Source: Dehalococcoidia bacterium
GTDB lineage: Bacteria > Chloroflexota > Dehalococcoidia > Plut-88900
Reading direction: 5' to 3'
Length of the DNA stretch: 64,000 nucleotides
Assembly: GCA_965249275.1 (NCBI GenBank)
Contig: CBDFLQ010000005.1
Coordinates: 288,001-352,000, forward strand
This document shows, piece by piece, positions 5,370 to 58,295 of this stretch. Each line of letters opens with the position of its first letter. Position 1 is the first letter of the stretch. The translations under genes were made by a program, and so were the position numbers. A model generated the notes under the pieces. That model had not been told where the DNA came from. It made no database searches and saw nothing but the letters and a program-made list of their open reading frames with translations.

Positions 5370-5575
5370 ACTGTGCTCCTAGACGTAGAGCCAGTCATGC
5401 CCGACCCCACCTATTCCATGCCCTCGGCCTGAGCCGCCCATTTGCCATCCATCAAGCCAAAGCAACCCACGATTTCCCGCGCCGCTGCCTGTCGTACAGG
5501 CTGGACAAAATCGACCTCATTGTCCGGCACGAGGATGCTATACTCGCCTTCGAAAAGGCCCACTGCATAGGCTGA
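5370..5575 (+). pseudogene. Degenerate duplicate of the 3' end of leuD
   Basis: PFAIHQAKATHDFPRRCL..LDKIDL..HEDAILAFEKA matches LeuD PFVIHQDKATHDFRRRCL..LDEIEL..HEDAILAYEKA. Confidence 0.85.
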
Positions 5576-5587
5576 GGAGACACGACT

Positions 5588-7066: not shown

Positions 7067-7195
7067 CTTGTTGCCTTCTTCGTGTCCTACTCATGGCTAG
7101 GCACGACTATATTTTCGTTGATGAGTCTGGGGACCTTGGGTACAAGAGTGTTCTTTGCCTAACTTACTAGCTAGTATGCATTGGAGGAAGGGGAT

Positions 7196-7300
7196 CACCC
7201 TCACCCCAGCCCTCTCCCGTCAAGGGAGAGGGGGTAGGATTCCCCGCCCCAGATTCACGCCTGAGGCGCATCTTCGACCTCGAGGGGCATCGGAATGACA
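7196..7300 (+). repeat. Host repeat D (7196-7233) and host repeat A interrupted by a 22-nt micro-element (7257-7278)
   Basis: CACCCTCACCCCAGCCCTCTCCCGTCAAGGGAGAGGG; AGATTC[ACGCCTGAGGCGCATCTTCGAC]CTCGAGGGGCATCGGAATGACA. Confidence 0.8.
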
Positions 7301-7393
7301 GTTAGGCTACAGCGAACAGGAGTGGGGAATAGCCGGAGAAATGTCGTGGGCTAGGTCGGACCTCCATGTTTCGGGAGATCTGCCTAGCCCGGT

Positions 7394-7421
7394 GATAGGC
7401 TGCAAATTAATGCAACCTATC
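7394..7421. promoter_or_regulatory. Imperfect palindrome, candidate operator upstream of CoA transferase 3
   Basis: GATAGGCTGCA-AATTAA-TGCAACCTATC followed by TATAAAT. Confidence 0.4.
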
Positions 7422-7459
7422 TACCTATAAATTTAGTGAATACCACTGAGACTGTCAAC

Positions 7460-8941: not shown

Positions 8942-8948
8942 TCCGCTG

Positions 8949-10430: not shown

Positions 10431-11695
10431 TCACTCGCCTGCCCTCCTTCCTGTCATTCCTGTTTCGACGGTCCCTACCCAACGACTACCTGACCATCCA
10501 ACTGGAAAGGGCCTGTCGAGAAGATATCTGTCCCATCTGCATCTTCGAGGGCGAGTCACGGTACACCTGGCTCTGGTCATTCCTCTGGGAGCATGTCAAC
10601 GACCCCGAGGCGCGGGACCAGTTCATAGAAGCGGGTGGCCTCTGCCCCGCCGACCTCTGGCGCGCCGTCGAGCTTGCGCGCCATGTCATCAAGAGCTCCC
10701 TTGGCGTTGCGATGGTGTTTCAACACCTGATCAAGATCATCACTCGGGCCCTGGAGACCGGACGCTCCAGCGCACCCTGGATAAGCACTTCGCCGTGGAG
10801 GTTTGACCTGGGCAGCGGTTGCCAAGCCTGCGCCACTGCAGAGAGCGCAGCGGGGTATTCAGCAACTCGGCTGCTCCTCGCCGCCTCGGTTCCCACCCCA
10901 CCCAGCTGGCTTGAGTCGGCTTTCCTCCTCTGCGGCCGCCACTTTCAGGGCTTGGTATCCAAGGCTTCCAATTCAGAGTCCCGCACTCGGCTATACAACT
11001 TCCAAGACTCGGCGGCGAAAGCCCAAGGTACGCCTAGCTCCGCCCGCCACTTGGAGGCCGCGGTTAAGCCTCTTCCAGCCTTCTTCCCGGTGCCCGTCAA
11101 GTCCGAGAGCTTGTACGAGAACGCGTCGGAAAGGTGTCCAGTGTGCGAGCGCATGACTCGGCTTGAAAGGGACTCGTCTTCTCCCTCAACCACGACACTT
11201 CACTCCTGCCTGGCCCATTACCGGGCCTTCGCCAGGGTAGGGACGGCCCTATACGCCCGGTTTGTACCTGAAGACGATTCGCAAGCGGTTATTCAGCGTT
11301 CAGGCTGCCCTTCTTGCAGTCAACGCCAAGAACTCGAGAGCCAAGCCCTCGATTACACCGTTTCCCTAATTCAAGAGCGCGGGGCTCAGGACCTGCTCTG
11401 TCTAACTCACCTTACCCGGGTTTTGGCCATGCTTGCCAGGGATAGGGGTGCTGCGTTCATGCAAGACCAACTGGACCGGCTGAACACCCTGATAAAAGAC
11501 CTGGACGACTTCATTGCGCTTCACGATTACCGGTACGGTAAGCAGCCGGCGGAGAACCCCGACTCTCCCTATCGGTGGGCACTCCGCTTCCTGTCTTCAG
11601 AGCCTTCCATTTATGCACATCTACTGCCTCCCGGCGGGTCCGAAAAGTTCCTGCGCTCGAAACGTCGCAGGCGGGCCTCGCTGCCCAATCCTTGA
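10427..11695 (+). CDS. Cys/His-rich DUF6062-like protein
   Basis: CPIC..WEHVND..R..GGLC and C-terminal LCLTHL..DF..HDYR motifs resemble DUF6062; GTGA overlap with upstream gene. Confidence 0.55.
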   Translation: MITRLPSFLSFLFRRSLPNDYLTIQLERACREDICPICIFEGESRYTWLWSFLWEHVNDPEARDQFIEAGGLCPADLWRAVELARHVIKSSLGVAMVFQHLIKIITRALETGRSSAPWISTSPWRFDLGSGCQACATAESAAGYSATRLLLAASVPTPPSWLESAFLLCGRHFQGLVSKASNSESRTRLYNFQDSAAKAQGTPSSARHLEAAVKPLPAFFPVPVKSESLYENASERCPVCERMTRLERDSSSPSTTTLHSCLAHYRAFARVGTALYARFVPEDDSQAVIQRSGCPSCSQRQELESQALDYTVSLIQERGAQDLLCLTHLTRVLAMLARDRGAAFMQDQLDRLNTLIKDLDDFIALHDYRYGKQPAENPDSPYRWALRFLSSEPSIYAHLLPPGGSEKFLRSKRRRRASLPNP

Positions 11696-11721
11696 CATAG
11701 CACCCCTCCTCTTTCTAAAAT
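11692..11721 (+). promoter_or_regulatory. Sigma70-type promoter for iscA
   Basis: TTGACA-N18-TAAAAT. Confidence 0.6.
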
Positions 11722-11752
11722 CCCAATAGGCCAATACGTCACAACGACAGGA

Positions 11753-12112
11753 ATGACACCAGCCATGACTACAGCAACCCCACTCCCTACCATTCACGTT
11801 ACCGAGCAGGCGGCCAAGCAAATGATGAAGATAGCCGCCAAGGAGGGCTACGACGAATTCGGCCTCCGCATGGCCGTCAAGGGCGGCGGCTGCTCGGGCC
11901 TCACGTACAAGCTCGGCTTCACCGAAACCCCCAAGAAGGACGACAAAGTCATCGAGGAGCACGGCGTCAAGCTTTTCATAGACTTCAAGAGCATGTTCTA
12001 CTTGGGCGGCACCGTTCTCGACTTCTCGGGCGGGCTGAACGGCAAGGGATTCGAGTTCACGAATCCCAACGCCAAGACGACCTGCGGGTGCGGGAACTCG
12101 TTCTCGGTCTAA
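11753..12112 (+). CDS. iscA: Fe-S cluster assembly A-type carrier (IscA/ErpA/HesB)
   Basis: GGGCSGLTY and TCGCGNSF motifs. Confidence 0.93.
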   Translation: MTPAMTTATPLPTIHVTEQAAKQMMKIAAKEGYDEFGLRMAVKGGGCSGLTYKLGFTETPKKDDKVIEEHGVKLFIDFKSMFYLGGTVLDFSGGLNGKGFEFTNPNAKTTCGCGNSFSV

Positions 12113-12215
12113 TCGCAGTTCCAGCCATACCTTAGCCTCTTTGGGGTCTTCCAGTTGATTGGAAGGCCCCTTTCTTCTACCATTGAAGCGTAAAGCACTA
12201 GAAGGACTTGCCGTT

Positions 12216-13232
12216 ATGACCCAGACAGCAAAGCTAACCACTCCCGAGACTGCCCTCCGTGCCGCCCGAGAAAGCGCCGTCTTCGCACATAAGCCGGCCC
12301 CCGGCATTCTCAGAGTGACCGGCGAGGACGCCCTGGACCTTATCAATCGCCTTTCCACGAACGAAGTCGAGGAGATGGCCGACGGTTCGGGGTTGTCCAC
12401 CGTGCTCACCACCAACAAGGGCAGAGTCGTCGATTTGCTCACCATGTTCTATCTCCCCGACCACTGGCTGGTTCTTACCTCTTCCGGCAACCAGCAGAAG
12501 GTCATAGACTGGATAGAGGATTTCACTTTCGGTGAGGAGATCGAGGTAGAAGACGTTACTGCGGATACCGTCGTGCTCACCATAGTCGGGCCTCGTGCCC
12601 CGGACATCATGCACACCCTAACGCAGGCTGACTTCTCGGCTCTGCCTACCCACCATTCAGTCCAGACCACGATTTCGGCAACCGAGGTCCTGGTCTCGAA
12701 AGCCGACTCGGCCCTCGGCGAGGCTTTCACCCTTCTGGCACCCATCGCTTCGGCTCCGGCCCTCAGCGCTGAAATCCTTGCCGCCGGCGAGGCCTTCGGC
12801 ATGAGAGAGATGGACGCAGACTCTTACGAGGCGTTCCGCATAGCTGCGGGGGTCCCGGCCTATGGCCCGGAGCTCGGCGAGGAAGTGAACCCCTTGGAAG
12901 CCGGGCTTTGGGATTCCGTTAGCTTCACCAAGGGCTGCTACGTCGGGCAGGAGGTCGTGGCCCGGCTCAACACCTACGAGAAGGTGAAGCGTTACCTAGC
13001 GATGCTGAGCCTTGAAGACGGGACTATCCCTGACGCCGGGACCCCATTAACCGTAGACGGCAAAGACGCCGGTAAGCTCACTTCCGTGTCCCCCATCCTG
13101 ATTTCGGGCCGCAGGCCCGCGCTCGGCTACGTGAGAAAAGCCTATGCGAACCCCGAGACTGCGTTGACGGTGGAATCGGGTGACGGGCCAGTGGCTTGTG
13201 AGTTCGTAAGGCGGGTAGGGACTCGAGACTAG
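12216..13232 (+). CDS. ygfZ: Folate-binding YgfZ/GcvT family protein
   Basis: KGCYVGQE signature; adjacent to iscA. Confidence 0.88.
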   Translation: MTQTAKLTTPETALRAARESAVFAHKPAPGILRVTGEDALDLINRLSTNEVEEMADGSGLSTVLTTNKGRVVDLLTMFYLPDHWLVLTSSGNQQKVIDWIEDFTFGEEIEVEDVTADTVVLTIVGPRAPDIMHTLTQADFSALPTHHSVQTTISATEVLVSKADSALGEAFTLLAPIASAPALSAEILAAGEAFGMREMDADSYEAFRIAAGVPAYGPELGEEVNPLEAGLWDSVSFTKGCYVGQEVVARLNTYEKVKRYLAMLSLEDGTIPDAGTPLTVDGKDAGKLTSVSPILISGRRPALGYVRKAYANPETALTVESGDGPVACEFVRRVGTRD

Positions 13233-13234
13233 GG

Positions 13235-15331
13235 TTAGCGAAGCGGCAGTCCGAAGGTCTTCAGGGTAGATTCAAGAACGGTGGGGTCGTTGGTCGGGAG
13301 GGCGCAGGTGTTCCCCGCACACACGTAGACCTGGGGACCCGCTTCTCGTGACATCATCCCCTCTACCGCAGGCGGCAGTTGACCTGGACTGCTTTTTGCG
13401 GGGTCGTACAAGGAGACCAGCTTGTGGGGCCGATAGGTGGCGAGGGCCTTGCGCCAAAGCTCCTGGGTCAGGGGATCCCCTTCGGAACCGACTATCACCG
13501 CATGGGCGGGCGGATTGAGGTGCTGTTCCAAGGCCAGGAAATAGGTGCTGGCGAACAGGCCGTACTGGGCACCTATCGGCCCAAAGAGTTTCAGCGTCTG
13601 CTCAGCCTTTTCCCGGTAATCCTCCCGGTGAGTCAGGTAGTAGAGCCGATCCAAGGTGAGCGCGGCGACGGAGTTCGTGCCGGGTGTGGGAGAGTCCTGG
13701 ATGGGTTTCTCGGCGCCCTCCAACCCCACCGAGCCTAGCTTCCAGTCCGCCAGATCGAAGAAGCCGCCTTCCACGTCGTCCCAGAAATGGACGATGGTGA
13801 AGTCCATCAGTTCTTGGGCGAGATCCAAGTACCGGGCCTCGCCGGTGGCTTCGTGGGCATCGATCAAGGCTCGGGCCATGTGGACCTGGTCGTCTAGGAG
13901 GCCGTCGACCTTCGCTTCTCCGTCGGCGAGGCTGTGGTAGAAGCCGCGCCCCGGCTTGTACGCTTCCTCGATGAGCCGGTCAATGGCCTTCAGCGCCGAC
14001 TCCCTGCACCCCTCCAACCCCAATCCCTTGTACGCCTCCAGGTGTGCAGAGGCCATCATGCCGTTCCATCCAGAATAGACCGTCGTGTCCACGTAAGGCA
14101 CGGGCCTATTTGAGCGCGCTTCCAGCAACGCTAGGCTCGACTCCCGGATGCGCTTGTTGACAAAGTCCTCGTCCAGCTGCAGCCGGCGGGCTATCGCGTC
14201 GGGCTGCATGTCGACGAAGAGGACGTTCTTTGCAGGGTTGTGGTGCATCTCACCTCTGGCCTCGACGTTGTAGAGGAGTGAAATGATCCGCGCGTCCTCG
14301 GGGGGCAGGGTCTCTTCCACCTCATCGAGCGTCCAGGTGAAATAGTCGCCGTCGTCTTCCATACCGACATCGGCGTCCTGGCTGGCGTAGAAGCCGCCGC
14401 GCTCGGGGTCGGAAGCCACCTCTGAAACCCACTTAACAATTCCTTCGGCGACCTCTCTGAACAGCGTCGATCCCGTGGCCTGATATCCGTGGACGTAGTT
14501 TCTGAGGAGCTCCGAGTTGTCGTAGGACATCTTCTCGAAGTGTGGAACTATCCAACGGTCGTCGACGGAGTAGCGGTGAAAGCCCCCGCCCAGCTGGTCG
14601 TAGACTCCGCCGAGGGCCATCTTCTCAAGGGTCTTGTTGATCATAACGCTCAGCCAGTCTTCCCGCGTCTCGTAGTATCGGCTCAGGGCCAACTCGATGG
14701 CCGAAGTGTGGGGGAATTTCGGGGCGCGGCCGAAGCCACCGTGCACCAGGTCGAACCCCTGCCCGATGGACTCCAGTGCAGCGTCCAAGGCGGAGACCCG
14801 GAGCTCGTGGCCCTCTTCGTGCTGGACGGTCAGTTTGCCCAGGTGTTCCTTTATTTTCCGGGCGTTTTCCAGCGCCGATTCCTTGTTGTCCCGATAAAGC
14901 TCGCTTACGCGGGTCAGCAGGGACTTGTAGCCGGGCCTGCCGTGCATGTCGTTCTTGGGGAAGTAGGTGCCGCCGTAGAAGACCTGTCCCCGTTCGGTGA
15001 GGAACGCGGTGAGGGGCCAGCCGCCCTGCCCTGTGATCGCGCCTACGGCGCTCTGGTATCGGCGGTCAACCTCGGGTCTTTCATCCCGGTCGACCTTCAC
15101 GGCGATAAACCGATCGTTGATGATGGCCGCCACTTCCTGGTCTTCGTAGCTCTCCCGGTCCATTACGTGGCACCAGTGGCACCACACCGCGCCGATGTCC
15201 AAAAGCACGGGCTTTCCTTGCTCGGCAGCCAGGCGGAAGGGCTCGTCGCCCCACGGATGCCACCGGATCGGCTGGTCGGCTGCGCTTTTCAGATAGGCAC
15301 TGGTCTCGTGGACGAGGCGGTTGGTGGTCAT
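13235..15331 (-). CDS. Thioredoxin-domain protein, YyaL/SSP411 (DUF255) family
   Basis: NRL..ETSAYL, WCHWCHVM, KVDRDERP, GGWPLT, HFEKM. Confidence 0.92.
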   Translation of the reverse strand: MTTNRLVHETSAYLKSAADQPIRWHPWGDEPFRLAAEQGKPVLLDIGAVWCHWCHVMDRESYEDQEVAAIINDRFIAVKVDRDERPEVDRRYQSAVGAITGQGGWPLTAFLTERGQVFYGGTYFPKNDMHGRPGYKSLLTRVSELYRDNKESALENARKIKEHLGKLTVQHEEGHELRVSALDAALESIGQGFDLVHGGFGRAPKFPHTSAIELALSRYYETREDWLSVMINKTLEKMALGGVYDQLGGGFHRYSVDDRWIVPHFEKMSYDNSELLRNYVHGYQATGSTLFREVAEGIVKWVSEVASDPERGGFYASQDADVGMEDDGDYFTWTLDEVEETLPPEDARIISLLYNVEARGEMHHNPAKNVLFVDMQPDAIARRLQLDEDFVNKRIRESSLALLEARSNRPVPYVDTTVYSGWNGMMASAHLEAYKGLGLEGCRESALKAIDRLIEEAYKPGRGFYHSLADGEAKVDGLLDDQVHMARALIDAHEATGEARYLDLAQELMDFTIVHFWDDVEGGFFDLADWKLGSVGLEGAEKPIQDSPTPGTNSVAALTLDRLYYLTHREDYREKAEQTLKLFGPIGAQYGLFASTYFLALEQHLNPPAHAVIVGSEGDPLTQELWRKALATYRPHKLVSLYDPAKSSPGQLPPAVEGMMSREAGPQVYVCAGNTCALPTNDPTVLESTLKTFGLPLR

Positions 15332-35203: not shown

Positions 35204-35306
35204 TGGGGGGTGAGGTAGGGTAGAGCGGAGGCTGTGCCCACCCGCGCCACGACATAGCCCTATGCCGTTGACACTTAGTTCACACAGTTCCGGACACTAT
35301 GGACGC

Positions 35307-36302
35307 CTAGCACCACGGAAACTCACCATCCCTATTATTTGCCCTACTTCTCAAACTGTTCGGTATGCAGCCACTCAAGTCATTGTCGCTGAGGTCCAGC
35401 CATTTCAGGTTGGCGAGGTTGCCCAACTCCGCCGGTATCTCTCCACTCAATTCATTGTTGCTGAGGCCCACATACTCCAGGTTGGCGAGGTCACCCAACT
35501 CCGCCGGTATCTCTCCACTCAATTCGTTGTTTCCGAGTAATAGCCTTTCCAGGTTGGCAAGGTTGCCCAACTCCGGGGGTATTTCGCCATTCAAGTCATT
35601 GCCACCTAGGTTTAGCGATTCCAGGTTGCTCAGGTTGCCCAACTCCGCCGGTATCTCTCGATTTATATAGTTGCCACTGAGGTACAGCCATTCCAGGTTG
35701 CTCAGGTTGCCCAACTCCGGGGGTATTTCGCCATTCAAGTCATTGTCTCCGAGGTTCAGCTTTACCAGGTTGGCGAGGTTGCCTAACTCCGGGGGTATCT
35801 CTCCACTCAATCCAGTCTTACTGAGGTTCAGACTTTCCAGGTTGGCGAGGTTGCCCAACTCTGCCGGAATCTCTCCACTCAATTTATTCAAGCTGAGGTC
35901 CAGCAATTTCAGGTTGGCGAGGTTGCCCAACTCCGGGGGTATCTCTCCACTCAATCTATTCTCATCGAAGTCAAATACTCCTCCACCGAGATCCAGTACT
36001 TCCAGGCTGGTAAGGTCACCCAACTCCGGCGGTATCTCCCCGACCAACTCGTTCTCGGCAAGGAGCAGTTCTGTAACACGGCCTTCCTCATTAGTGGATA
36101 CGTTGGACCATTTGTGCAGCGGCGCATCAGTCAGCCAGTATTCTTTGTCTGCCCAGTACTCGCCGGTGGTGGCATGGAAGAGCGCAACTAGCGCTTCTCT
36201 ATCAGGTTCATCGGGGCCACATGCCGATAGCGCCGCCATGATAATCAGCCCAAGTAGGCAACAAAGGAGGCCGGTCAGCCATCTTTTCGGTTGCAACTTC
36301 AT
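35307..36302 (-). CDS. Leucine-rich-repeat lipoprotein with plant-specific-type 24-aa LRRs
   Basis: LSAC lipobox; DREALVAL N-cap; about 9 repeats of LSGEIPPELGNLANL (72-bp DNA period). Confidence 0.9.
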   Translation of the reverse strand: MKLQPKRWLTGLLCCLLGLIIMAALSACGPDEPDREALVALFHATTGEYWADKEYWLTDAPLHKWSNVSTNEEGRVTELLLAENELVGEIPPELGDLTSLEVLDLGGGVFDFDENRLSGEIPPELGNLANLKLLDLSLNKLSGEIPAELGNLANLESLNLSKTGLSGEIPPELGNLANLVKLNLGDNDLNGEIPPELGNLSNLEWLYLSGNYINREIPAELGNLSNLESLNLGGNDLNGEIPPELGNLANLERLLLGNNELSGEIPAELGDLANLEYVGLSNNELSGEIPAELGNLANLKWLDLSDNDLSGCIPNSLRSRANNRDGEFPWC

Positions 36303-36645
36303 GGTTCCGCCTACGCCGTCTTATGCCCAATTCCTGTGATCATTGTACATACCGTCGGTGACATACGCCCCTTGCACCCCCACCCCCGAAATTCCCACCC
36401 TTGCCACCATCATTATTCCTTTAGCAGGAATGCATCCCCTCCCCCGTAGGTTCAATCCCTCGTGGAGATGGGATCACGACTCGGCTAGGGCGATTCGGGT
36501 GCTCCAGCCGGCGCCTCGCACTCCTCCGAGGCCACCCCCACCCCGGCTGGCACGAAGATTGCCGCAGAGACATCCGGAAACTCCTTCAAATGCACCCCTT
36601 CGCCCTCGGTATATCAGCCAGGTTGGGTTCCGCGATTAGCAGATC

Positions 36646-37494
36646 TTAGCACCGCGGTAACTCACCGCCAATCCATGCCTTACCTATCAAACTGCGTGGT
36701 ATACAGCCACTCAGTTTGTTGCCTGCGAGGCCCACATCCTCCAGGTTGGCGAGGTCACCCAGCTCCCGCGGTATCTCCCCACTCAATTCATTGTTGCTGA
36801 GGCCCAGCGATTTCAGGTTGGCAAGGTCACCCAACTCCGCCGGTATCTCGCCACTCAAATTATTGGACCTGAGATCTAACCTGACCATGCTGATCATATT
36901 GCCCAACTCTCGCGGTATCTCTCCACTCAATTCATTGTGGCTAAGGAACAGCCGGCCCAGGTTGACAAGATCGCCCAATTCCGCCGGTAACTCTCCACTC
37001 AATTCATTTTGCTCAAGAACCAAGTCCTGCAGGTGGAAGAGGTTTCTCAACGCTGCCGGTATCTCCCCGCTCAAGTTATTGTCATGGAGAGTCAGAAATT
37101 TCATTTTGATCGGGTTTCCCAACTCCGCCGGTATCTCTCCACTCAATTCATTCTCACTGAGGTCCAGCCAGAACAGTTTGGTCAGATTGCCCAGCTCCGG
37201 CGGTATCTCCCCACTCAATCCATTCCTCCTGATGTGCAGTTGTGAAACACGGCCTTCCTTAGTAGTTACGCCGTACCATTCGCCTATCGGCGCATCGCTC
37301 AGCCAGTTTTCATTGTTACGCCAGCTCGGGCCATCCGTTGCGTTGTACAGTGCAACTAGCGCTTCTCTATCCGTTTCGGGCGACGTGGTCGCTGTCGGTC
37401 GCGTGTCGGAGCCACAGGCGGTCAGAAGACCCACTAGCACCAAGCCAACTAGCAAGAAACGCAAATGAACTAGAACCATGTACACATGAGTCAT
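36646..37494 (-). CDS. Leucine-rich-repeat lipoprotein, paralog (true start may be slightly downstream)
   Basis: LTAC lipobox; DREALVALYNATDGPSW N-cap; about 7 LRRs. Confidence 0.9.
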   Translation of the reverse strand: MTHVYMVLVHLRFLLVGLVLVGLLTACGSDTRPTATTSPETDREALVALYNATDGPSWRNNENWLSDAPIGEWYGVTTKEGRVSQLHIRRNGLSGEIPPELGNLTKLFWLDLSENELSGEIPAELGNPIKMKFLTLHDNNLSGEIPAALRNLFHLQDLVLEQNELSGELPAELGDLVNLGRLFLSHNELSGEIPRELGNMISMVRLDLRSNNLSGEIPAELGDLANLKSLGLSNNELSGEIPRELGDLANLEDVGLAGNKLSGCIPRSLIGKAWIGGELPRC

Positions 37495-41616: not shown

Positions 41617-41747
41617 CCCTGGGATTCACACCATGTCATACCTGCGGTTCTAAAGTCACAAACGAAGTGCACCACCTGATGAGGGTGCGTCGTGGGAAGA
41701 GGTGTTGGGGGTGGATAGGCCGTACTTCGTGAGCGCGCAAGTCCTAG

Positions 41748-42943
41748 GAAACCTCTGAACAAGTCTAAGGGCATAGGTAATAGGTAAGATAGGGAGAGTA
41801 AGGCCAAAGCTGAGGTGAGATTTGATGGAGCAGCCGACATTTGCAGACTTGGAATACGAGGGCAAGAAGCGAAAGACCCGCCGGGAGATATTTCTGGAGC
41901 GGATGGAGGACCTGGTTCCATGGGGAAAGTTAGAGGAGCGAATCCGGCCCTACTATTCCAGGGCGGGCCGTGGACGGAGGCCCTACGAGTTGTCGGTGAT
42001 GCTGCGGATACACTGCGTGCAGCTGTTCTACAACCTGAGCGATCCGGGCATGGAGGACATGCTCTACGAGGTGGAGTCGGTGAGGCGGTTCGCAGGTCTG
42101 AGGCTGTCCGGCCCCTTGCCTGACGAGACTACGATACTGAACTTCCGCCATCTGCTGGAAGAGCAGGAGTTGGGTCGGGGGCTGTTCGAGGAGATCAACC
42201 GTCATCTGGAGTCTCGGGGACTGAGGCTCAGGGAGGGTACGATTGTGGATGCGAGCATCATCGAGGCGCCGGCGTCTACGAAGAACCGTGCTGGAGAGCG
42301 AGACCCCGATATGCACCAAGTGAAGAAGGGGAAGGAGTGGCACTTCGGTATGAAAGTGCACATTGGTGCAGACGCTGACACGGGGGTGGTGCACAGTATG
42401 AGTACGACAGCTGCGAACGTGCATGACGTGACGGAGGCGCACCGGCTGCTGCATGGAGGGGAGAGGCGAGTGTGGGGAGATGCGGGATATCAGGGAGTGG
42501 AGAAGCGGGCGGAGAATCGGGATATGGATGTGGAGTGGCGGGTGGCGATGAGACCTGGACGGCGTCGGAAACTGAGGGCGGGGAGCTGCGAGGCCTTAGC
42601 GGAGAAGAGCAAATCATCCATCAGGGCTAAGGTGGAGCATCCGTTCCTGTACGTGAAACGGCACTTCGGCTACGCCAAGGTCCGCTACAGGGGCTTGTAC
42701 AAGAACACGCAACGGGTGGCGATGCTGCTGGGGCTGGCCAACTTGGTAAGGGCCGAGCGCCACTTAGCGGTGTGACGGAGGAGCAGTGTGGTCAAATCCG
42801 GGTCGATGGTGACTGGATGCCCTGACAGGCCAGAACATAGGATGCAAATAAGCCACCGAGACGCAACATTACGACCCAACCTCTCCCCAAAACTCCATGC
42901 AAGACAACCTAAGCTGGTTTACAGTGAGTTGTTCAGAGCTTCC
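41748..42943 (+). mobile_element. IS5 family (IS5 subgroup) element, 1196 bp, CTAG TSD
   Basis: TIRs GAAACCTCTGAACAA / TTGTTCAGAGCTTCC; CTAG at 41744-41747 and 42944-42947. Confidence 0.95.
41822..42775 (+). CDS. IS5 family transposase
   Basis: TRREIFL, PDETTILNFRHLLE, IVDA, WHFGMK.HIG.D, GDAGY, RAKVEHPF. Confidence 0.95.
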   Translation: MMEQPTFADLEYEGKKRKTRREIFLERMEDLVPWGKLEERIRPYYSRAGRGRRPYELSVMLRIHCVQLFYNLSDPGMEDMLYEVESVRRFAGLRLSGPLPDETTILNFRHLLEEQELGRGLFEEINRHLESRGLRLREGTIVDASIIEAPASTKNRAGERDPDMHQVKKGKEWHFGMKVHIGADADTGVVHSMSTTAANVHDVTEAHRLLHGGERRVWGDAGYQGVEKRAENRDMDVEWRVAMRPGRRRKLRAGSCEALAEKSKSSIRAKVEHPFLYVKRHFGYAKVRYRGLYKNTQRVAMLLGLANLVRAERHLAV

Positions 42944-43028
42944 CTAGATTCCTCGCGGAGCCGCGGAATGACACGGGGGGGGCAGGGGAGATGGGTGGGG
43001 ACGGGGGCGGATGTGAGAAAATGCATAT

Positions 43029-43646
43029 GTGAACGAGATGGATATAGACGTTCCCCGACCAGCGCCGGAGGACGGAAGGAACTTCTTGCGGGCGCGATGG
43101 AAGATTATTGTGCCGCTGCTTCTCTTATTTGCCGGGTTGGTGGCGGTGTTGGTGTGGGGGGCGCTGGACAAGGACTCGGCCACGGGGGGGAGCGGGGCGA
43201 CCAGGCCGGGCAAGGAGGCTCCCGCATTCTCGTTGGAATCATTCTCTGATGGGATGGTGTCGCTGGCCGATTTCGAAGGGCAGCCGGTGATCATCAACTT
43301 CTGGGCGTCGTGGTGTGCACCGTGTCGACAGGAAATGCCGGCACTGGAGGCGACCTGGCAGCTGTTCCGAGAGCGGGACTTGGTCATTGTGGGTATCAAT
43401 TTGCCTAAAAGTGACCCCGAGGAAAGCGCCCGAGCATTTCTGGACGAGTTCGGCATAAGTTATCCAAACGTCTTCGACACGAGAGGGTTTACGGCTATCG
43501 ACTACGGGGTGTCGGGGATACCGGTTACATTCTTCGTGGACAGGGAGGGTGTCGTGACCCGGAGGTTTGTGGGGACGCTTACTGAGGGTTCGTTGATGGT
43601 GTGGGCGGAAGAGTTGGTGGGGGGTGGGGAACCCTCACCCCCTTAG
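43029..43646 (+). CDS. TlpA/ResA-like thiol-disulfide oxidoreductase
   Basis: N-terminal TM helix; NFWASWCAPCRQEMP; G.P.TFF. Confidence 0.9.
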   Translation: MNEMDIDVPRPAPEDGRNFLRARWKIIVPLLLLFAGLVAVLVWGALDKDSATGGSGATRPGKEAPAFSLESFSDGMVSLADFEGQPVIINFWASWCAPCRQEMPALEATWQLFRERDLVIVGINLPKSDPEESARAFLDEFGISYPNVFDTRGFTAIDYGVSGIPVTFFVDREGVVTRRFVGTLTEGSLMVWAEELVGGGEPSPP

Positions 43647-43736
43647 TCCCCCTCTCCCTTAGGGCCTTCAAGGGAGAGGGGGAGAAAAGAATAGGGGCAC
43701 CCATCTGCGCAAAGCGCAGATGGGTGCCCCTAATTC
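43626..43736 (+). repeat. ~110-nt double-hairpin element, copy 1
   Basis: Near-identical to 51477-51589; perfect 19-bp stem at 43692-43732. Confidence 0.85.
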
Positions 43737-51476: not shown

Positions 51477-51589
51477 GGGGGAACCCTCACCCCCTTGGTC
51501 CCCCTCTCCCTTAGGGCCTTCAAGGGAGAGGGGGAAAGAAGAATAGGGGCATGCATATGCGCTTTAGCGCATATGCATGCCCCTAATTC
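51477..51589 (+). repeat. ~110-nt double-hairpin element, copy 2
   Basis: Matches 43626-43736; stem at 51544-51585. Confidence 0.85.
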
Positions 51590-51850
51590 AGTACCGGGGG
51601 AGGGGAAAAGGAGGAGAGATTGGGGATTGGGCGATGTTGTGGGGCCTAGTTCGGTGCAGGTGGGGAGGGGAAAGGAAGAGAGGTTGGGGTTGGCGAATGT
51701 TATGTGGCTAGTTCGGTGCGGGGAAGGGGGAAAGGAAGAGGGGTTGGGGGTTGGGCGTCGCTATGTGGTCAATTCAGTACGGGGGAGGAGGGAAAAGGGG
51801 CGAGGTTGGGGATTTGGTGATGTTGTGTGGACTAGTACGAGAGGGAGGGG
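51585..51850 (+). repeat. G-rich imperfect tandem repeat, ~62-nt unit, 4 copies plus a partial copy
   Basis: Recurrent A(A/G)TTC(A/G)GT(A/G)C..GGGGAGGGGAAAGG..GTTGGGG..ATGTT.TGTGG. Confidence 0.75.
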
Positions 51851-51945: not shown

Positions 51946-51980
51946 AGGGGAAGGCAGATAGGTGATGGGGCAAGTCCTAG

Positions 51981-53176
51981 GGAAGCTCTGAACAACTCAC
52001 TGTAAACCAGCTTAGGTTGTCTTGCATGGAGTTTTGGGGAGAGGTTGGGTCGTAATGTTGCGTCTCGGTGGCTTATTTGCATCCTATGTTCTGGCCTGTC
52101 AGGGCATCCAGTCACCATCGACCCGGATTTGACCACACTGCTCCTCCGTCACACCGCTAAGTGGCGCTCGGCCCTTACCAAGTTGGCCAGCCCCAGCAGC
52201 ATCGCCACCCGTTGCGTGTTCTTGTACAAGCCCCTGTAGCGGACCTTGGCGTAGCCGAAGTGCCGTTTCACGTACAGGAACGGATGCTCCACCTTAGCCC
52301 TGATGGATGATTTGCTCTTCTCCGCTAAGGCCTCGCAGCTCCCCGCCCTCAGTTTCCGACGCCGTCCAGGTCTCATCGCCACCCGCCACTCCACATCCAT
52401 ATCCCGATTCTCCGCCCGCTTCTCCACTCCCTGATATCCCGCATCTCCCCACACTCGCCTCTCCCCTCCATGCAGCAGCCGGTGCGCCTCCGTCACGTCA
52501 TGCACGTTCGCAGCTGTCGTACTCATACTGTGCACCACCCCCGTGTCAGCGTCTGCACCAATGTGCACTTTCATACCGAAGTGCCACTCCTTCCCCTTCT
52601 TCACTTGGTGCATATCGGGGTCTCGCTCTCCAGCACGGTTCTTCGTAGACGCCGGCGCCTCGATGATGCTCGCATCCACAATCGTACCCTCCCTGAGCCT
52701 CAGTCCCCGAGACTCCAGATGACGGTTGATCTCCTCGAACAGCCCCCGACCCAACTCCTGCTCTTCCAGCAGATGGCGGAAGTTCAGTATCGTAGTCTCG
52801 TCAGGCAAGGGGCCGGACAGCCTCAGACCTGCGAACCGCCTCACCGACTCCACCTCGTAGAGCATGTCCTCCATGCCCGGATCGCTCAGGTTGTAGAACA
52901 GCTGCACGCAGTGTATCCGCAGCATCACCGACAACTCGTAGGGCCTCCGTCCACGGCCCGCCCTGGAATAGTAGGGCCGGATTCGCTCCTCTAACTTTCC
53001 CCATGGAACCAGGTCCTCCATCCGCTCCAGAAATATCTCCCGGCGGGTCTTTCGCTTCTTGCCCTCGTATTCCAAGTCTGCAAATGTCGGCTGCTCCATC
53101 AAATCTCACCTCAGCTTTGGCCTTACTCTCCCTATCTTACCTATTACCTATGCCCTTAGACTTGTTCAGAGGTTTC
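51981..53176 (-). mobile_element. IS5 family element, second copy, 1196 bp, CTAG TSD
   Basis: Same TIRs inverted; CTAG at 51977-51980 and 53177-53180. Confidence 0.95.
52149..53102 (-). CDS. IS5 family transposase
   Basis: Translation identical to 41822-42775. Confidence 0.95.
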   Translation of the reverse strand: MMEQPTFADLEYEGKKRKTRREIFLERMEDLVPWGKLEERIRPYYSRAGRGRRPYELSVMLRIHCVQLFYNLSDPGMEDMLYEVESVRRFAGLRLSGPLPDETTILNFRHLLEEQELGRGLFEEINRHLESRGLRLREGTIVDASIIEAPASTKNRAGERDPDMHQVKKGKEWHFGMKVHIGADADTGVVHSMSTTAANVHDVTEAHRLLHGGERRVWGDAGYQGVEKRAENRDMDVEWRVAMRPGRRRKLRAGSCEALAEKSKSSIRAKVEHPFLYVKRHFGYAKVRYRGLYKNTQRVAMLLGLANLVRAERHLAV

Positions 53177-53349
53177 CTAGATTCCTCGCGGAGCCTCGGA
53201 ATGACAGTGTCGTTGGTGTGTCGACTGGAATGGACGAGGTCGGGGGTAGAGCGTGGTACAGAGTATAGTCGGCGCCTTTGGGGAATCCGCTTGTGTACTG
53301 GTGATGGGCACTGTCGCATGAGGGGCGCTTGGTCGGATAGACTTCGCTT

Positions 53350-54260: not shown

Positions 54261-54485
54261 TTAACAGGGCACAGGCTCGTCTACCTCTTCGCCTTCAATG
54301 GCGGTGAGGGCCTCTTCGAGCATGTGCTCCTGGACGAGGATGCCGCAGGGTCGGATGGAGACGCCAAGAAAGGCGCTGGTGTCGCCGGGATTGAGGCGAA
54401 ATGGAATACCGTTGTAGGAGAGGAGGCCACCCCACATTTCGGCGATGATCTGGTCGGGGGCGGTGGCTACTAGGACCCACTTCAT
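54261..54485 (-). CDS. DUF2007-like small protein
   Basis: W..VATA..Q..AE....LL...GIP. Confidence 0.75.
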   Translation of the reverse strand: MKWVLVATAPDQIIAEMWGGLLSYNGIPFRLNPGDTSAFLGVSIRPCGILVQEHMLEEALTAIEGEEVDEPVPC

Positions 54486-54506
54486 TTTCGGGCGACCTTT
54501 CCGGGT

Positions 54507-57500
54507 CTAGGCCCCGGCTAGTGTGATGGCGTCATCGCCGAGGCGGGGGGAGAGGAGCTTGACGAGGCGGGGGGAATACTCCACCTGGACGCCGGGGACC
54601 TCCAAGTGAGTGATTCGGGAGCGTTCTTCGATTTGGAGGAATAGGGCACTGGGGCCGGGACACTGCCTGGCTATGGTTAGGGCGTCTTTGAGCATCTCGG
54701 CGTCCTGGGTGTCGTCTCCCGTGGCGCGGATTTTGAGCCAGACTTCGCCGGGGGTGGTTGGAGGGGGATGGATTCCGGCCTCCGCAGGAATGACGGTGGG
54801 GGTGGGGTGAGCGGCACCATTTTCCGATTCCCGATTGGTTGAAACTGGTGCAGGTTCAGGATAAGCGGGCGGGGCTTCCCCATTCCGCTCGGTTGATCCT
54901 TCGATCCGCCTCGGCGGACCTGCGGCAGGGCGAGGGGAATCCTCACCGCTCCGATTGGCAGGCTCAGGGAGAACGGCTCCATTTGCTGTTGGTTCAATAG
55001 ATGGTTCGACGCCGGAGGGAATGGATTCACGCCCCGGCGCACGCCGAGGCGCATCTTCGACATCTTCAACGGGCTCGGGGGCCGGAATGACGGGAGGAGT
55101 TTCGGACTCGTCGTCTTCGGTGGGGAGATCGAACTTTTGGACGGAGTTGCAGTGGACGGAAACACGGTCACCGTTTCGGAGGCGGACCCTACCTTCCACT
55201 TTGAGAATCGATCCATCAACCCAGAGGGCCTGGGTCCTTTGGTAGACCTCTTTCCAACCGACGACCTCAATGGAGCCGGAAATGTCCTCCATGACCGCAG
55301 CGCCGAAGGGGTCGCCTCTTCTTGTGGTGCCAGTTCTAAAGGAGGACAGCTGCCCGACCAGTATCACCTTTTGCCCATCCTGCTCGGGGCTGATATCTCC
55401 GCACATGTTGGGCTCGATGTCGCCGAGATTGCGGTTAATGCGCGAAATGGGACTTTCGGCGAGGCTTGCGCCGAGCAGCTCTTTCTCCCAGGTCTCGGAT
55501 TCGCCGGGCTGAATTCTTATCCGTTCAAGCTCAAGCTCGGGGAGGGGGGTTGCGACGGACGCACCCCATAGGTCGAACATAGTCGTTTGGCCTGAGTTTT
55601 TCAAGTCCGATTCCCTCTGGGACATGGAGAGGATACGGTCGATTCCCCCAAGCAGGGAGCCTCGGTCTTCCAGGGAGTCCAGGGCCCCGACTTTTATTAG
55701 GCTCTCCAAGGCCCGCTTGTTGAGGTTGTGCAGGTTGGCCCTGCGGCACATGTCCTCGACGGACTTGAACGGGCCATCTTCCTGCCGGGCCTCGACGAGG
55801 GGGCGTACTGCTCCATCGCCAACGTTCTTGACCGCAGATAGGCCGAACCTGATGGAGCTGGACCCGTTGTCGCGCTCCATGGTGAAGTCGATGTCGGACA
55901 TGTTGATGTCGGGGCGGAGGACCTGGATGCCGAGCTTGCGGCACTCTTCCACTGCCGAGGAGGTGTGATCGGACTGGCTGGGGTGGCAGGTGAGGAGGGC
56001 GGTCATGAACTCCACGGGATAGTTGGCCTTCAGATAGGCAGTCCAGTAGGAGATCATGGCGTAGCTGACGCTGTGGGCCTTGTTGAATGCGTAGCCGGCG
56101 AAGGGCAGTATCAGTTCGAACATGTACTCGGATAAATCCTGGGGGAACCCCTTGGCCTTGGCCCCTTCCAGGAACCGTTGCCGCTCCTCTGCCATGAGGG
56201 AGGCTATCTTCTTTCCCATCGCCTTCCGCACCACGTCGGCCTGACCGAGACTGTAGCCGGCAAACATTCGGAGGATAAGGAGCACCTGGTCCTGGTAGAC
56301 GATGACGCCGTAGGTCTCCTCGAGGATGTCGGAGAGGGCGGGGTGGGGGTAGGTGACCTCGGCGCGCTGGTGCTTGGCTTCGATGAAGCGGGTTATGTGC
56401 TCCATAGGGCCGGGTCGGTAGAGGGCGATCATGGCAGCCACGTCATTGACGGAGGTCGGCTTAAGCTGCTTGATGTATCTACGCATCCCCGAGCTTTCCA
56501 GCTGGAAGATGCCGGTGGTCTCTCCGCTGGAGAGGTGGTCGAAGGTCCTTTTATCGTCGAGGGGGATGTCGTTAAGGGACATCCTGGCGCCCCCGCTCTT
56601 GGCGATGATGTCCAGGGCCTTGCCAAGGATGGTGAGGTTAATGAGGCCGAGGAAGTCCATCTTCAGGAGGCCCAGCTTGGCGATGGGGTCCATCGAGAAC
56701 TGGGTTACGGCTATCTCCTCACCGTCGCTGCGGGATGCGCGCTGGAGAGGAACGTAGTTGGTGAGGGGTTCCTGTGAGATGACGATGCCCGCGGCATGGG
56801 TGCTGGCGTGTCGGGCCACGCCTTCCAGCTTCTGGGCGGAGTCGACGAGCTTGCGGACAGCGTGGTCCTGGTTGTAGGTGCTGCTAAGGTCGGGGCTGGC
56901 CTTCATGGCTTCGTCGATGGACTTGACCCCGAATGGCACCTGCTTGGCCACGTTGTCGACGATAGAGTAGGGCATTCCAAGGGCGCGCCCGACGTCCCTT
57001 AGGGCGGCGCGTGCGCCAAGGGTGCCGAAGGTAACGATCTGGGCGACGTGCTCGGCCCCGTACTTGCGGGTGACGTAGGCAATGACTTCGTCCCGACGGT
57101 CGTCCTGGAAGTCCAGGTCGATGTCGGGCATTTCGTTGCGCTCGATGTTGAGGAAACGCTCAAATACGAGCCCGTACTCGAGGGGGTCGATGTCGGTGAT
57201 GCCGAGGCAGTAGAGGACTACGCTGCCGGCGGCGCTTCCCCGGACGCCGAACAGGATGCCGTTCTCCCTGGAATAGGAAGTAATGTCCATGACGACCAAG
57301 AAATAGTTAGCGAACTGGGTCTTCTTGATGACGTCCAGCTCGTCGAGCAGGCGGCGGCGGGCGTTCTCTCCCGCTCCGGGGTAGAGGCGCCGGAAGCCCT
57401 CTTCGCAAAGGGTTGCAAGATAGTCGTCGGCGTCTTCGCCGTGGGGGGTGGGGTAGTGGGGGAGGCGCAGGCGGTCGAACTCGATGGAGAGGTCGCACAT

Positions 57501-58295
57501 ATCGGCGATGCACATTGTGTTCTCAAGGGCATCGGGCAGGTCGGAGAAGAGCTGGCGCATCTCCTCGGGTGTCTTGAGATAGAGGGAGTCGTCGGACATC
57601 TTCAGACGCTTCTCGTCCTGGACGTTGGTGTTGGTCTGGATGCAGAGAAGGATGTCCTGGACACTGGCCTCGTCGCGGTGGATGTAGTGAACGTCGTTGG
57701 TGGCGACCAGGGGGATTTCGAGATCATGACTGAGGCGGAGGAGGCCCTCGTTGATAGGGGTAAGCATGTCGAGGTCGTGGCGCTGGATCTCCAGGTAGTA
57801 GTCCTGGAAAACTTCACGGTACCAGCGGGCGGCGGCATAGGCGTCGTCCATACGGCCTTCCAGGATGGCGCGCGGGACCTCGGCGGTGGGGCAGCCGGAG
57901 AGGACTATGAGGCCCTCATGGTGCTGTTCGAAGAGGGCCCTGTCCATGCGGGGCTTGTAGTAGAAGCCCTCCATGTTGGCCTTGGTGACCAGCTGTATGA
58001 GGTTGCGGTAGCCGGTCTCGTTCTTGGAGAGGACGGTCAGGTGGTAGGGTGACTTCTCGGAGGGGGTCTTGGTACGGCGGTTGCTGTGGGCGACGTAGAC
58101 CTCACAACCGATGATGGGTTTGACGCCGGTCTTGCGGGCAGCGGAATAGAAATCGATGGCGCCATAGAGGTTGCCGTGGTCGGTTAGGGCCATGCTCTCC
58201 ATCCCCAGGTCCCGGGCCCGCTGCATAAGGTTTGGGATGCGGCAAAGGCCATCCAACAGGCTGAATTCGGAATGGAGATGAAGGTGTGTATACAA
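54507..58295 (-). CDS. dnaE: DNA polymerase III alpha subunit with a repeat-derived Pro-rich linker
   Basis: HLHLHSEFSLLDG PHP domain, GRGS-like VRGSAAG, PDIDLDF, KMDFLGL, YAFNKAHS. Confidence 0.97.
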   Translation of the reverse strand: MYTHLHLHSEFSLLDGLCRIPNLMQRARDLGMESMALTDHGNLYGAIDFYSAARKTGVKPIIGCEVYVAHSNRRTKTPSEKSPYHLTVLSKNETGYRNLIQLVTKANMEGFYYKPRMDRALFEQHHEGLIVLSGCPTAEVPRAILEGRMDDAYAAARWYREVFQDYYLEIQRHDLDMLTPINEGLLRLSHDLEIPLVATNDVHYIHRDEASVQDILLCIQTNTNVQDEKRLKMSDDSLYLKTPEEMRQLFSDLPDALENTMCIADMCDLSIEFDRLRLPHYPTPHGEDADDYLATLCEEGFRRLYPGAGENARRRLLDELDVIKKTQFANYFLVVMDITSYSRENGILFGVRGSAAGSVVLYCLGITDIDPLEYGLVFERFLNIERNEMPDIDLDFQDDRRDEVIAYVTRKYGAEHVAQIVTFGTLGARAALRDVGRALGMPYSIVDNVAKQVPFGVKSIDEAMKASPDLSSTYNQDHAVRKLVDSAQKLEGVARHASTHAAGIVISQEPLTNYVPLQRASRSDGEEIAVTQFSMDPIAKLGLLKMDFLGLINLTILGKALDIIAKSGGARMSLNDIPLDDKRTFDHLSSGETTGIFQLESSGMRRYIKQLKPTSVNDVAAMIALYRPGPMEHITRFIEAKHQRAEVTYPHPALSDILEETYGVIVYQDQVLLILRMFAGYSLGQADVVRKAMGKKIASLMAEERQRFLEGAKAKGFPQDLSEYMFELILPFAGYAFNKAHSVSYAMISYWTAYLKANYPVEFMTALLTCHPSQSDHTSSAVEECRKLGIQVLRPDINMSDIDFTMERDNGSSSIRFGLSAVKNVGDGAVRPLVEARQEDGPFKSVEDMCRRANLHNLNKRALESLIKVGALDSLEDRGSLLGGIDRILSMSQRESDLKNSGQTTMFDLWGASVATPLPELELERIRIQPGESETWEKELLGASLAESPISRINRNLGDIEPNMCGDISPEQDGQKVILVGQLSSFRTGTTRRGDPFGAAVMEDISGSIEVVGWKEVYQRTQALWVDGSILKVEGRVRLRNGDRVSVHCNSVQKFDLPTEDDESETPPVIPAPEPVEDVEDAPRRAPGRESIPSGVEPSIEPTANGAVLPEPANRSGEDSPRPAAGPPRRIEGSTERNGEAPPAYPEPAPVSTNRESENGAAHPTPTVIPAEAGIHPPPTTPGEVWLKIRATGDDTQDAEMLKDALTIARQCPGPSALFLQIEERSRITHLEVPGVQVEYSPRLVKLLSPRLGDDAITLAGA
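54760..55095 (+). repeat. Stack of host repeats C/B/C and micro-elements inside dnaE, all in frame
   Basis: Host C at 54769-54795; host B at ~54885-54976 with 21-nt (54905-54925) and 33-nt inserts; host C at 55022-55093 with nested 42-nt insert (55029-55070). Confidence 0.85.

Follow-up and report, generated by a model that had tools for sequence, protein, structure and literature searches.

How much of the coding sequence of an essential replicase dispersed repeats can supply, with the gene still being kept, is the question raised by dnaE, the gene of the alpha subunit of DNA polymerase III (Pol III alpha), in an uncultured Dehalococcoidia bacterium (assembly GCA_965249275.1). The gene lies in a stretch of 64,000 nucleotides (nt), positions 288,001 to 352,000 of contig CBDFLQ010000005.1, which is called the window below and to which positions refer unless another contig is named. 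Between the OB fold and the C-terminal domain, the encoded protein possesses a linker of 125 amino acids (aa), and at least 56% of the linker DNA consists of copies of repeats that are dispersed over the genome and stand in frame, as an initial annotation made from the letters of the window had claimed. This linker, predicted to be disordered, has very probably served as a landing pad for the dispersed repeats of the genus, with selection acting on the open frame and on the flexibility of the tether.

The frame of dnaE is open throughout from a TTG start, and the gene is the sole Pol III alpha match in the genome under study (G000, 2.9 Mb, 87% complete). The Pfam domains PHP (aa 4-173), pol3_alpha (291-550), fingers (553-716), HHH_6 (789-878) and the OB fold (977-1053), with E values from 1.5e-95 to 6.9e-10, follow each other in canonical order, which identifies the protein as Pol III alpha. 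Behind the linker, the last 80 aa show the fold order beta-alpha-beta-beta-alpha-beta, and their profile matches residues 1127-1180 of 7pu7_A (E 0.0024) and residues 1089-1158 of E. coli 5fku_A (E 0.37) in the PDB. With the structural model of this part as query, the top six Foldseek matches are Thermus aquaticus Pol III alpha structures (2hpi, 4iqj, 3e0d; probability 0.92-1.0, TM(query) 0.50-0.58), among them the alpha-tau complex 4iqj; the part is thus the Pol III alpha C-terminal domain. In the Pol III alpha of E. coli and T. aquaticus, the C-terminal domain after the OB fold is the tau-binding domain. By homology to the T. aquaticus complex, the domain is predicted to bind tau also here, and, as it matches Pol III alpha structures, the linker would tether the polymerase body to a predicted tau-binding domain. 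An AlphaFold2 model of the last 300 residues, built with 27 orthologs, predicts a linker without secondary structure between two confidently modelled domains. The linker sequence is composed of 23% Pro, 14% Glu and 12% Ala and is devoid of Lys, Gln, Met, Phe, Trp and Cys. The architecture of the gene is as follows.

54507 to 58295, minus strand: dnaE, 1262 aa, recognised by its series of Pfam domains
55137 to 55367, minus strand: OB fold, aa 977-1053 (Pfam PF01336; AlphaFold2 pLDDT 94-98)
54750 to 55124, minus strand: predicted disordered linker, aa 1058-1182 (composition; AlphaFold2 pLDDT 50-60; unalignable between species)
54510 to 54749, minus strand: C-terminal domain, aa 1183-1262 (PDB profile and Foldseek matches; AlphaFold2 pLDDT 94-97)

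The elements recognised within the linker belong to hairpins of the repetitive extragenic palindromic (REP) type, called hosts B and C, and to micro-elements of 21 nt, called m1 and m4, which are inserted into those hairpins.

54769 to 54795, plus strand: host C copy 2, an intact hairpin of the CGTC-tagged REP type (host C model, genome-wide E 0.023)
54883 to 54904, plus strand: left part of a B2-like host B, TTCCGCTCGGTTGATCCTTCGA (boundaries by eye against the B2 consensus)
54905 to 54925, plus strand: m4, a 21-nt micro-element, TCCGCCTCGGCGGACCTGCGG, located in host B behind CCTTCGA and read within AAGPPRR
54926 to 54941, plus strand: right arm of host B, CAGGGCGAGGGGAATC (weak B2 match at 54895-54941, genome-wide E 4.5)
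54946 to 54980, plus strand: degenerate second copy of host B, CCGCTCCGA...GGCTCAGGGAGAACGG (weak B1 match at 54961-54980, genome-wide E 5.5; left part by eye)
55022 to 55028, plus strand: left arm of host C copy 1, TGGATTC (sequence comparison with genomic copies)
55029 to 55040, plus strand: 5' part of an outer m1, ACGCCCCGGCGC (comparison with genomic m1 copies)
55041 to 55061, plus strand: inner m1, ACGCCGAGGCGCATCTTCGAC, 21 nt, nested in the outer m1 (m1 model, genome-wide E 0.0032, 20.1 bits)
55062 to 55070, plus strand: 3' part of the outer m1, ATCTTCAAC (comparison with genomic copies)
55071 to 55092, plus strand: right part of host C copy 1, GGGCTCGGGGGCCGGAATGACG (C match at 55074-55093, genome-wide E 1.1)

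The intact host C, which had been annotated as the source of the peptide VIPAEAGIH, is recovered by a model of 122 other genomic copies at 54767-54796 and does translate to this peptide on the coding strand. It reads TGG-ATTCCGGC-CTCC-GCAGGAAT-GACG on the plus strand and CGTC-ATTCCTGC-GGAG-GCCGGAAT-CCA, a stem with one mismatch, on the coding strand. Equally, the double 21-nt insert proposed for the other host C is present: the 42 nt at 55029-55070 are exactly 12 + 21 + 9, with the inner m1 placed after GCGC of the outer m1 and both located between GGATTC and GGGCTCGGGGGCCGGAATGACG of host C, and are translated in frame to VEDVEDAPRRAPGR, which together with TVIPAEAGIHPPPTTPGEVWLK is among the peptides encoded by the linker. 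The claim of a host B with a 21-nt and a 33-nt insert at 54885-54976 stands for host B and for the 21-nt insert, m4, which also follows CCTTCGA in four intergenic host B copies; the supposed 33-nt insert, examined by eye, is instead the right arm of host B (AGGGCGAGGGGAAT) succeeded by the degenerate second host B copy. Altogether, recognisable elements account for about 209 of the 375 linker bases (56%), in a single orientation.

Six nhmmer family models (A, B1, B2, C, m1 and m2) were built from copies outside dnaE, and the reversed, not complemented, genome served as the control for repeat counts. At E<=0.01, the models find 149 (A), 129 (B1), 111 (B2), 138 (C), 40 (m1) and 28 (m2) places in the genome and none, for any of the six, in the reversed genome. 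Core patterns give a similar picture, with 159 occurrences of the host C pattern GATTCC-N(4-150)-GGAAT[GC]A (97 with a 12-nt interior) against 7 in the control, 89 against 3 for host B, the pattern of which was broadened after a narrow version had matched only 2 copies, 87 against 2 for m1 and 43 against 3 for m2; a first, loose pattern for the 21-nt element was discarded with 151 occurrences against 99. Within the linker, five family matches of the same orientation fall into 380 nt, and since the reversed genome yields no match at E<=0.01 and only 1-12 per family at E<=10 over 2.9 Mb, these five are not due to chance. The repeat units are 21-46 nt long, belong to several families and are mostly intergenic outside the linker. 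The main genomic subfamily of host C ends in TGTC (consensus GGAATGACAG), and some other subfamilies, as judged by eye, have longer loops or imperfect stems. Over host C at 54751-54832, the summed contig word depth in the public runs X1, X2 and X6 rises from about 50-200 to about 5,500-14,900, which suggests that the hairpin is very abundant across the organisms of those metagenomes.

The micro-elements occupy recurrent positions. Among 60 strict m1 copies, 19 stand after CCCTCTC of host A-type hairpins, 17 after GGATTC of host C, nine at the GCGC^ATCT point of another m1, which is the nesting point also used in the linker, four after AAAGGTC and four to six after GGCTC of host B2, and 53 are located at one of these five recurring sites. 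The 24-nt element m3 sits in host B and the 21-nt element m4 in hosts B and C, and empty copies of each host are common alongside filled ones. Length alone does not preserve the frame, as the initial annotation had supposed of the 21-nt size: 42 of the 60 m1 copies are 21 nt long and 18 are 22 nt long, and the lengths of the host hairpins are not divisible by 3, so that the frame is kept by selection on the survivors and not by size alone.

In order to see how far the repeat-built linker extends beyond G000, 30 DnaE coding sequences (111,819 nt), the own locus and 29 relatives, were searched with the six models at E<=1. The genus comprises nine species with interrelated genomes, whose dnaE loci carry the labels L001 (G000), L002 (G005), L003 (G002), L004 (G003), L005 (G004), L006 (G001), L007 (G008) and L009 (G006) where a label is needed. 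In the eight other species, the catalytic part is 78-98% identical in protein to that of G000, the alignment breaks at about residue 1065-1119 and it resumes at about residue 1144-1163. The linkers in between, of 102-149 aa, are mutually unalignable, and all nine frames are open into the conserved C-terminal domain. With this domain in frame in all 27 aligned orthologs, the annotated open frame through the linker is borne out. The genus linkers carry one to four copies of VIPA(E/K)AGIHP as well as pieces of host B (LEGS.., ..ERNG.., NGAAHPEP), and the G001 linker carries a copy of host A, ALPPSPLRGEGQGEG.

The repeats are restricted to the genus. The linkers of its nine members account for nearly all matches among the 30 sequences, and these matches share one orientation. 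Outside these linkers lie a match with E 0.3 near the start of the L011 linker, two matches upstream of the L002 start codon and five weak ones (E 0.5-0.7) in the catalytic parts of L005, L010, L024 and L029, and no linker match was found in L012-L030 with the six models at this threshold. Strict host C copies number 97 in G000, and every genus genome holds 69-126 of them; the three further genera of the family have 1-2, the remainder of the class has 0-29 and the control has none. For m1, seven genus genomes contain 11-54 copies, G006 and G008 contain none, and 0-1 were counted in the other genomes. A comparison fixed beforehand concerned orthologs from repeat-poor genomes, and G009-G011 (1-2 host C, 0 m1) indeed lack this linker sequence. 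In the family-level relatives, the linkers measure 80 and 35 aa and are of unrelated sequence rich in Pro and Glu, and linker length ranges from 19 to 149 aa across the class. That elements created the linker is not what the comparison indicates: a Pro-rich tether without the repeats is found across the class, so the disordered tether appears ancestral and colonised by repeats in this genus. In a class-level relative, the dnaE match at G017:C1:419753-423219 is broken into many pieces in different frames, which could reflect inteins, frameshifts or poor assembly.

A mosaic of repeats in a core gene may be suspected to be an artefact, with repeats mis-assembled into dnaE, or with the gene ending before the linker and the C-terminal part being a separate or dead open reading frame (ORF). 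Short-read contigs do break at repeats, and in one metagenome run joints with low support skip parts of the linker. Against this, the OB fold, the repeat-bearing linker and the C-terminal domain stand in one open frame in nine genomes, six of which are single-contig chromosomes, and the C-terminal domain matches solved Pol III alpha structures. Moreover, contigs from two public runs of two studies cross the linker over 505 nt with 0 differences and over 465 nt with 4 differences, whereby one of the two runs may be the source sample. The skipping joints were considered as population indels and rejected: those in run X2 leave out 74-179 nt of the linker, with sides of only 22-48 nt at 90% likeness and, in some, letters from other repeat loci in between, so they are read as other repeat copies and not as alleles, and short-sided joints of this kind are expected where other copies of the repeats exist. 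An artefact is thus hardly credible. Presumably, the linker is translated.

The proteome check that the initial annotation had recommended extended the observation to linkers of other proteins. Of the 595 element matches with E<=0.01, 159 are located 20 or more codons within stop-to-stop ORFs of at least 150 aa, most of which are probably spurious; apart from dnaE, the ten longest were examined with Pfam, and five of them are without a Pfam match. Valyl-tRNA synthetase (ValRS) of G000 (C7:674357-677182) carries VIPAEAG-RRSAEEE-IHP, host C with m4, between the catalytic and the anticodon-binding domain and, in the same region, MSFRRSARNLG, which is host C in another frame. All nine ValRS orthologs of the genus have a hypervariable, repeat-built insert of 22-63 aa at this one site, between ISIL(D/E)Q and LPIEDRW; seven of the species hold host C there and the other two hold host A (E values down to 2e-10). 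A copy of host A, IPSPSTGEGQGEGDS, is also present in the E2 acyltransferase of a 2-oxoacid dehydrogenase (G000:C5:647827-649218), within the linker that joins the lipoyl domain to the E3-binding domain. A 488-aa ORF (G000:C6:591743-593206) belongs to those without a Pfam match; with an apparent membrane anchor, a HEWFHH motif and SVIPAPEPESIP, derived from host C, in a Pro-rich stretch, it looks like a real protein. Two further candidates, ORFs for a CoA-transferase and a GMC oxidoreductase, were set aside, as the element lies upstream of the first domain and so probably outside the true gene.

The nine linkers share one element that is more constant than the rest. A host C stands directly before the C-terminal domain in eight of the nine genus orthologs, with a half copy in the ninth, and its DNA is nearly alike between species that share only about 80% identity in the dnaE core. 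This constancy, together with the single orientation of all linker copies, would fit REP hairpins that are kept for a role as DNA or RNA, be it a pause or stability signal in the mRNA before the C-terminal domain, a gyrase site or a recombination site; for REPs in general, action at the RNA or DNA level is considered possible, and intragenic copies are often found in replication and repair genes, according to the available part of the work on this class (PMC3733652). Yet the loop of that very host C is split by inserts of 21 or 24 nt in five of the nine species, the copy number in the linker varies from one to four and other elements come and go. At the ValRS site, furthermore, host A takes the place of host C in some species, and the conservation of the REP can also be explained by gene conversion among about 100 genomic copies. 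A retained DNA or RNA role is hence quite unlikely, and tolerance of the repeats by a flexible tether is the preferred reading.

The most recent change can be followed between the sister species G006 and G008. Their dnaE genes are 97% identical over the 850 codons preceding the linker, and their linkers (L009 and L007) differ by one indel in 465 columns, with about 94% identity in the alignable columns. This indel is a 24-nt insertion in G006, which has exactly the m3 consensus and lies inside host B, at a point of the host that is filled at seven other places in G006 and at nine in G008. Because G000, G004 and G008 show the empty state, a gain in the G006 line is the simplest reading. Besides, both species carry a 24-nt m3 in the last host C (VIPAEAE-PAPEKSW-GIHP) and no m1 in DnaE, and m3 copies with at most one mismatch number 65 in G006, 39 in G008, 31 in G004, 17 in G007 and 5 in G000, with 0 in the control.

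A second micro-element, m4, occupies the last host C (VIPAEAG-RRSAAEE-IHP) in G005, G002 and G004 and is missing from it in G000, G003 and G001. Other changes are of a different kind: G002 lacks 51 nt between two GTCGAA repeats, by which part of the nested structure common to G000 and G005 is gone, and G003 and G002 bear tandem duplicates of the REP unit, of 69 and 78 nt. The prediction that linker length varies in steps of 7 aa consequently holds in part: single indels of 7 aa (21 nt) and 8 aa (24 nt) do match micro-elements, but overall the length of 102-149 aa does not follow such steps, with those duplications and the deletion contributing as well.

These events bear on the nature of m1, m3 and m4, which, as we are inclined to think by a modest preference, are ultra-small site-specific mobile elements that parasitise REPs, nest in themselves, have been active since the split of the sister species and form species-specific repertoires, with the linkers recording their activity. 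Within this reading, the record would take the form of codon-exact insertions in the DnaE and ValRS linkers, because the size of the micro-elements keeps the frame. The competing account is a single ancient capture of repeats, followed by local slippage, unequal crossing-over and gene conversion, in which micro-elements move only together with their hosts. It would agree with the visible tandem duplications and the deletion between direct repeats, with the one frame and one orientation of all DnaE REPs and with the filled host C (C + m4), which recurs as a whole in G000 ValRS and in the DnaE linkers of G005 and G002. It would agree, too, with the search for a RAYT/Y1 transposase (PF01797), which gave no match in G000, a genome 87% complete, so that absence of the enzyme is not established. 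On the other side stand the 60 m1 copies, in which the same element occupies fixed points in at least five different hosts, and the coexistence of empty and filled copies of each host. In addition, the repertoire differs between species, with m1 missing from G006 and G008 and m3 rare in G000, and DnaE follows the repertoire of its own genome, and the insertion in L009 corresponds precisely to one element, boundaries included. A single capture is accordingly judged improbable, and mobile micro-elements are the reading towards which we lean.

Several observations nevertheless weigh against the picture of a tether colonised by repeats, or limit it. About 44% of the linker is assigned to no repeat family, and the linker copies of host B score weakly, with boundaries set partly by eye. 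The counts across the nine genus genomes are not independent, these genomes being related, and long linkers without these repeats, of 125 and 149 aa, exist in other Dehalococcoidia. Local duplication would fit equally well the single orientation and single frame of all DnaE REP copies. The state of m4 conflicts with the core-gene tree, with G000 empty and its sister G002 filled, which takes two or more events, be they gains, losses or conversions; as the composite of host C and m4 is also present in ValRS of G000, the difference between L001 and L002/L003 could be due to gene conversion by another filled copy and not to insertion in place. Finally, in the RNA-library run X16, contigs are found only at 54420-54692 and 55240-55500 and none across the linker; the flanking contigs are about 93% alike and hence stem from a relative, and otherwise there are short pieces on host C only.

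The events would be explained as follows. Being long and disordered, the tether that joins the OB fold to the C-terminal domain may tolerate nearly any Pro/Ala/Glu-rich sequence, and for this reason it could have become the landing pad for abundant dispersed repeats. REP-type hairpins such as hosts A, B and C would settle in the tether, and micro-elements of 21-24 nt (m1, m3, m4) would insert at fixed points within the hairpins and within each other, of which only configurations that are free of stops and keep the frame would survive to be translated as linker. The linker would then evolve fast, by micro-element insertion, tandem duplication of REP units and deletion between short direct repeats, with the flanking DnaE domains remaining conserved meanwhile. 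The peptides encoded by the repeats may have no specific function, with selection acting on the open frame and the flexible tether; both this neutrality and the mechanism of insertion are what we infer from the comparison of sequences.

Among known systems, the CGTC-tagged REPs come closest to host C. By their published description (PMC3733652), they have CGTC as the terminal tetranucleotide and a CCA tail, their stem of 8-9 bp opens with two A-T pairs and their loop measures 4-5 nt, and the CGTC-1 family includes RPE-6 of Rickettsia and dRS3 of Neisseria (Di Nocera, De Gregorio and Rocco 2013, PMC3733652). Host C agrees in that its coding strand consists of CGTC, an 8-bp stem starting with AT (ATTCCTGC), the 4-nt loop GGAG, the second half of the stem and CCA, and in that it is a high-copy, dispersed and mostly intergenic repeat, with 97 strict copies in G000; the comparison relies on the description in the available part of the text and not on a consensus sequence. 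The terminal tetranucleotide, for which TGTC or CCTC are allowed as well, is GACG at 54792-54795 and thus CGTC on the coding strand, and the complete arrangement ATTCCTGC-GGAG-GCAGGAAT-CCA is found in the orthologs L002-L006, from which the window copy deviates by its one stem mismatch. As examples of intragenic REPs, DnaE of R. conorii and several tRNA synthetases have been given, and such copies have been proposed to be neutral by virtue of their position in flexible linkers or loops (PMC3733652, available part). In contrast to the present case, Chloroflexi are named there for GTAG repeats, with the five phyla that bear CGTC repeats left unnamed in the available part, and the REPs here themselves host inserts of 21-24 nt, the word 'nested' being missing from that paper (PMC3733652). 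Here, also, several unrelated repeat families jointly form most of the 125-aa linker.

Rickettsia palindromic elements (RPE), reportedly described by Ogata et al. in 2000, had been cited by the initial annotation as a precedent, and the likeness holds for their behaviour. These elements, summarised in a review (PMC10969869), are, as far as the available part of it goes, dispersed palindromic repeats that stand in frame in many unrelated genes, essential ones included, and add a peptide with the protein left intact. Likewise, in-frame palindromic repeats are present in the functional genes of DnaE, ValRS and the E2 acyltransferase, where the elements lie between Pfam domains. RPE-1, however, is a unit of about 100-150 bp, also given as about 150 bp, with one conserved peptide, unlike the units of 21-46 nt found here, which come from several families, occur in stacks and inside one another and vary between species of one genus, and the host is a free-living member of the Dehalococcoidia and not an obligately intracellular alphaproteobacterium. 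The likeness to RPE is accordingly one of behaviour, not of membership.

For the micro-elements, the counterpart would be the small dispersed repeats SDR1-8 of the Nostocaceae, which Elhai et al. in 2008 are said to have found as units of about 21-27 nt at fixed points inside other repeats and inside their own copies, and to have reportedly proposed as the smallest mobile elements. The elements m1, m3 and m4 resemble them as units of 21-24 nt at fixed points within other repeats, with five hosts, and by self-insertion, of which the nested pair at 55029-55070 is the window's example. They differ by their host, a member of the Chloroflexota, by the REP-type hairpins in which they sit and by copies that are also read as protein. 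Among HIP1-rich cyanobacteria, no SDR has been noted outside the Nostocaceae in the available part of a study (PMC5861425). By this likeness to the description of SDRs, the micro-elements may be regarded at most as analogues.

In-frame reading of REPs within permissive linkers, that of DnaE included, has been described before, as is evident from the available part of the CGTC REP work (PMC3733652). The new features are that several repeat families are stacked in one linker, that SDR-like elements of 21-24 nt are nested in REPs outside the cyanobacteria and that the elements turn over from species to species, with one clean insertion event in an essential gene. A limited literature search found no paper on such elements in Chloroflexota, nor the peptide strings VIPAKAGI, VIPAEAGI, IPAKAGIQ and IPAKAGIH in print; among the papers listed on repeats of Dehalococcoidia or Chloroflexi, PMC3733652 alone proved relevant.

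Nearly a tenth of an essential replicase is thus writable by selfish repeats and has been rewritten between species of one genus with the gene being kept, and the 24-nt insertion in G006 provides a dated example. If the micro-elements are mobile, linkers of essential genes would naturally record when such elements have been active and would keep supplying new disordered protein sequence. The difference in repertoire within one genus, with regard to m1 and m3, offers a natural contrast in which to seek the mobilising enzyme, and the comparison of species with and without these elements can address the movement of the smallest known kind of repeat and the enzyme behind it. In practice, such linkers break ortholog alignments, make core genes look more diverged than they are and cause short-read assemblies to fall apart within them.

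The surroundings of dnaE contain repeats of other kinds. Positions 41744-42947 and 51977-53180 form an inverted repeat of 1204 nt with 100% identity, which probably represents an insertion sequence present twice; its second copy lies about 1.3 kb past the 3' end of dnaE, and 85-nt repeats that are 93% alike (43626-43710 and 51478-51562) adjoin these copies. Two blocks of tandem repeats with a period of 72 nt and 12 in-register copies, of 60-74% identity to the reference, occupy 35268-37263 and probably represent the gene of a repetitive protein. At 51603-51811, a purine-rich unit of 23 nt, GGGGAAAGGAAGAGAGGTTGGGG, occurs four times with a spacing of 60-64 nt.

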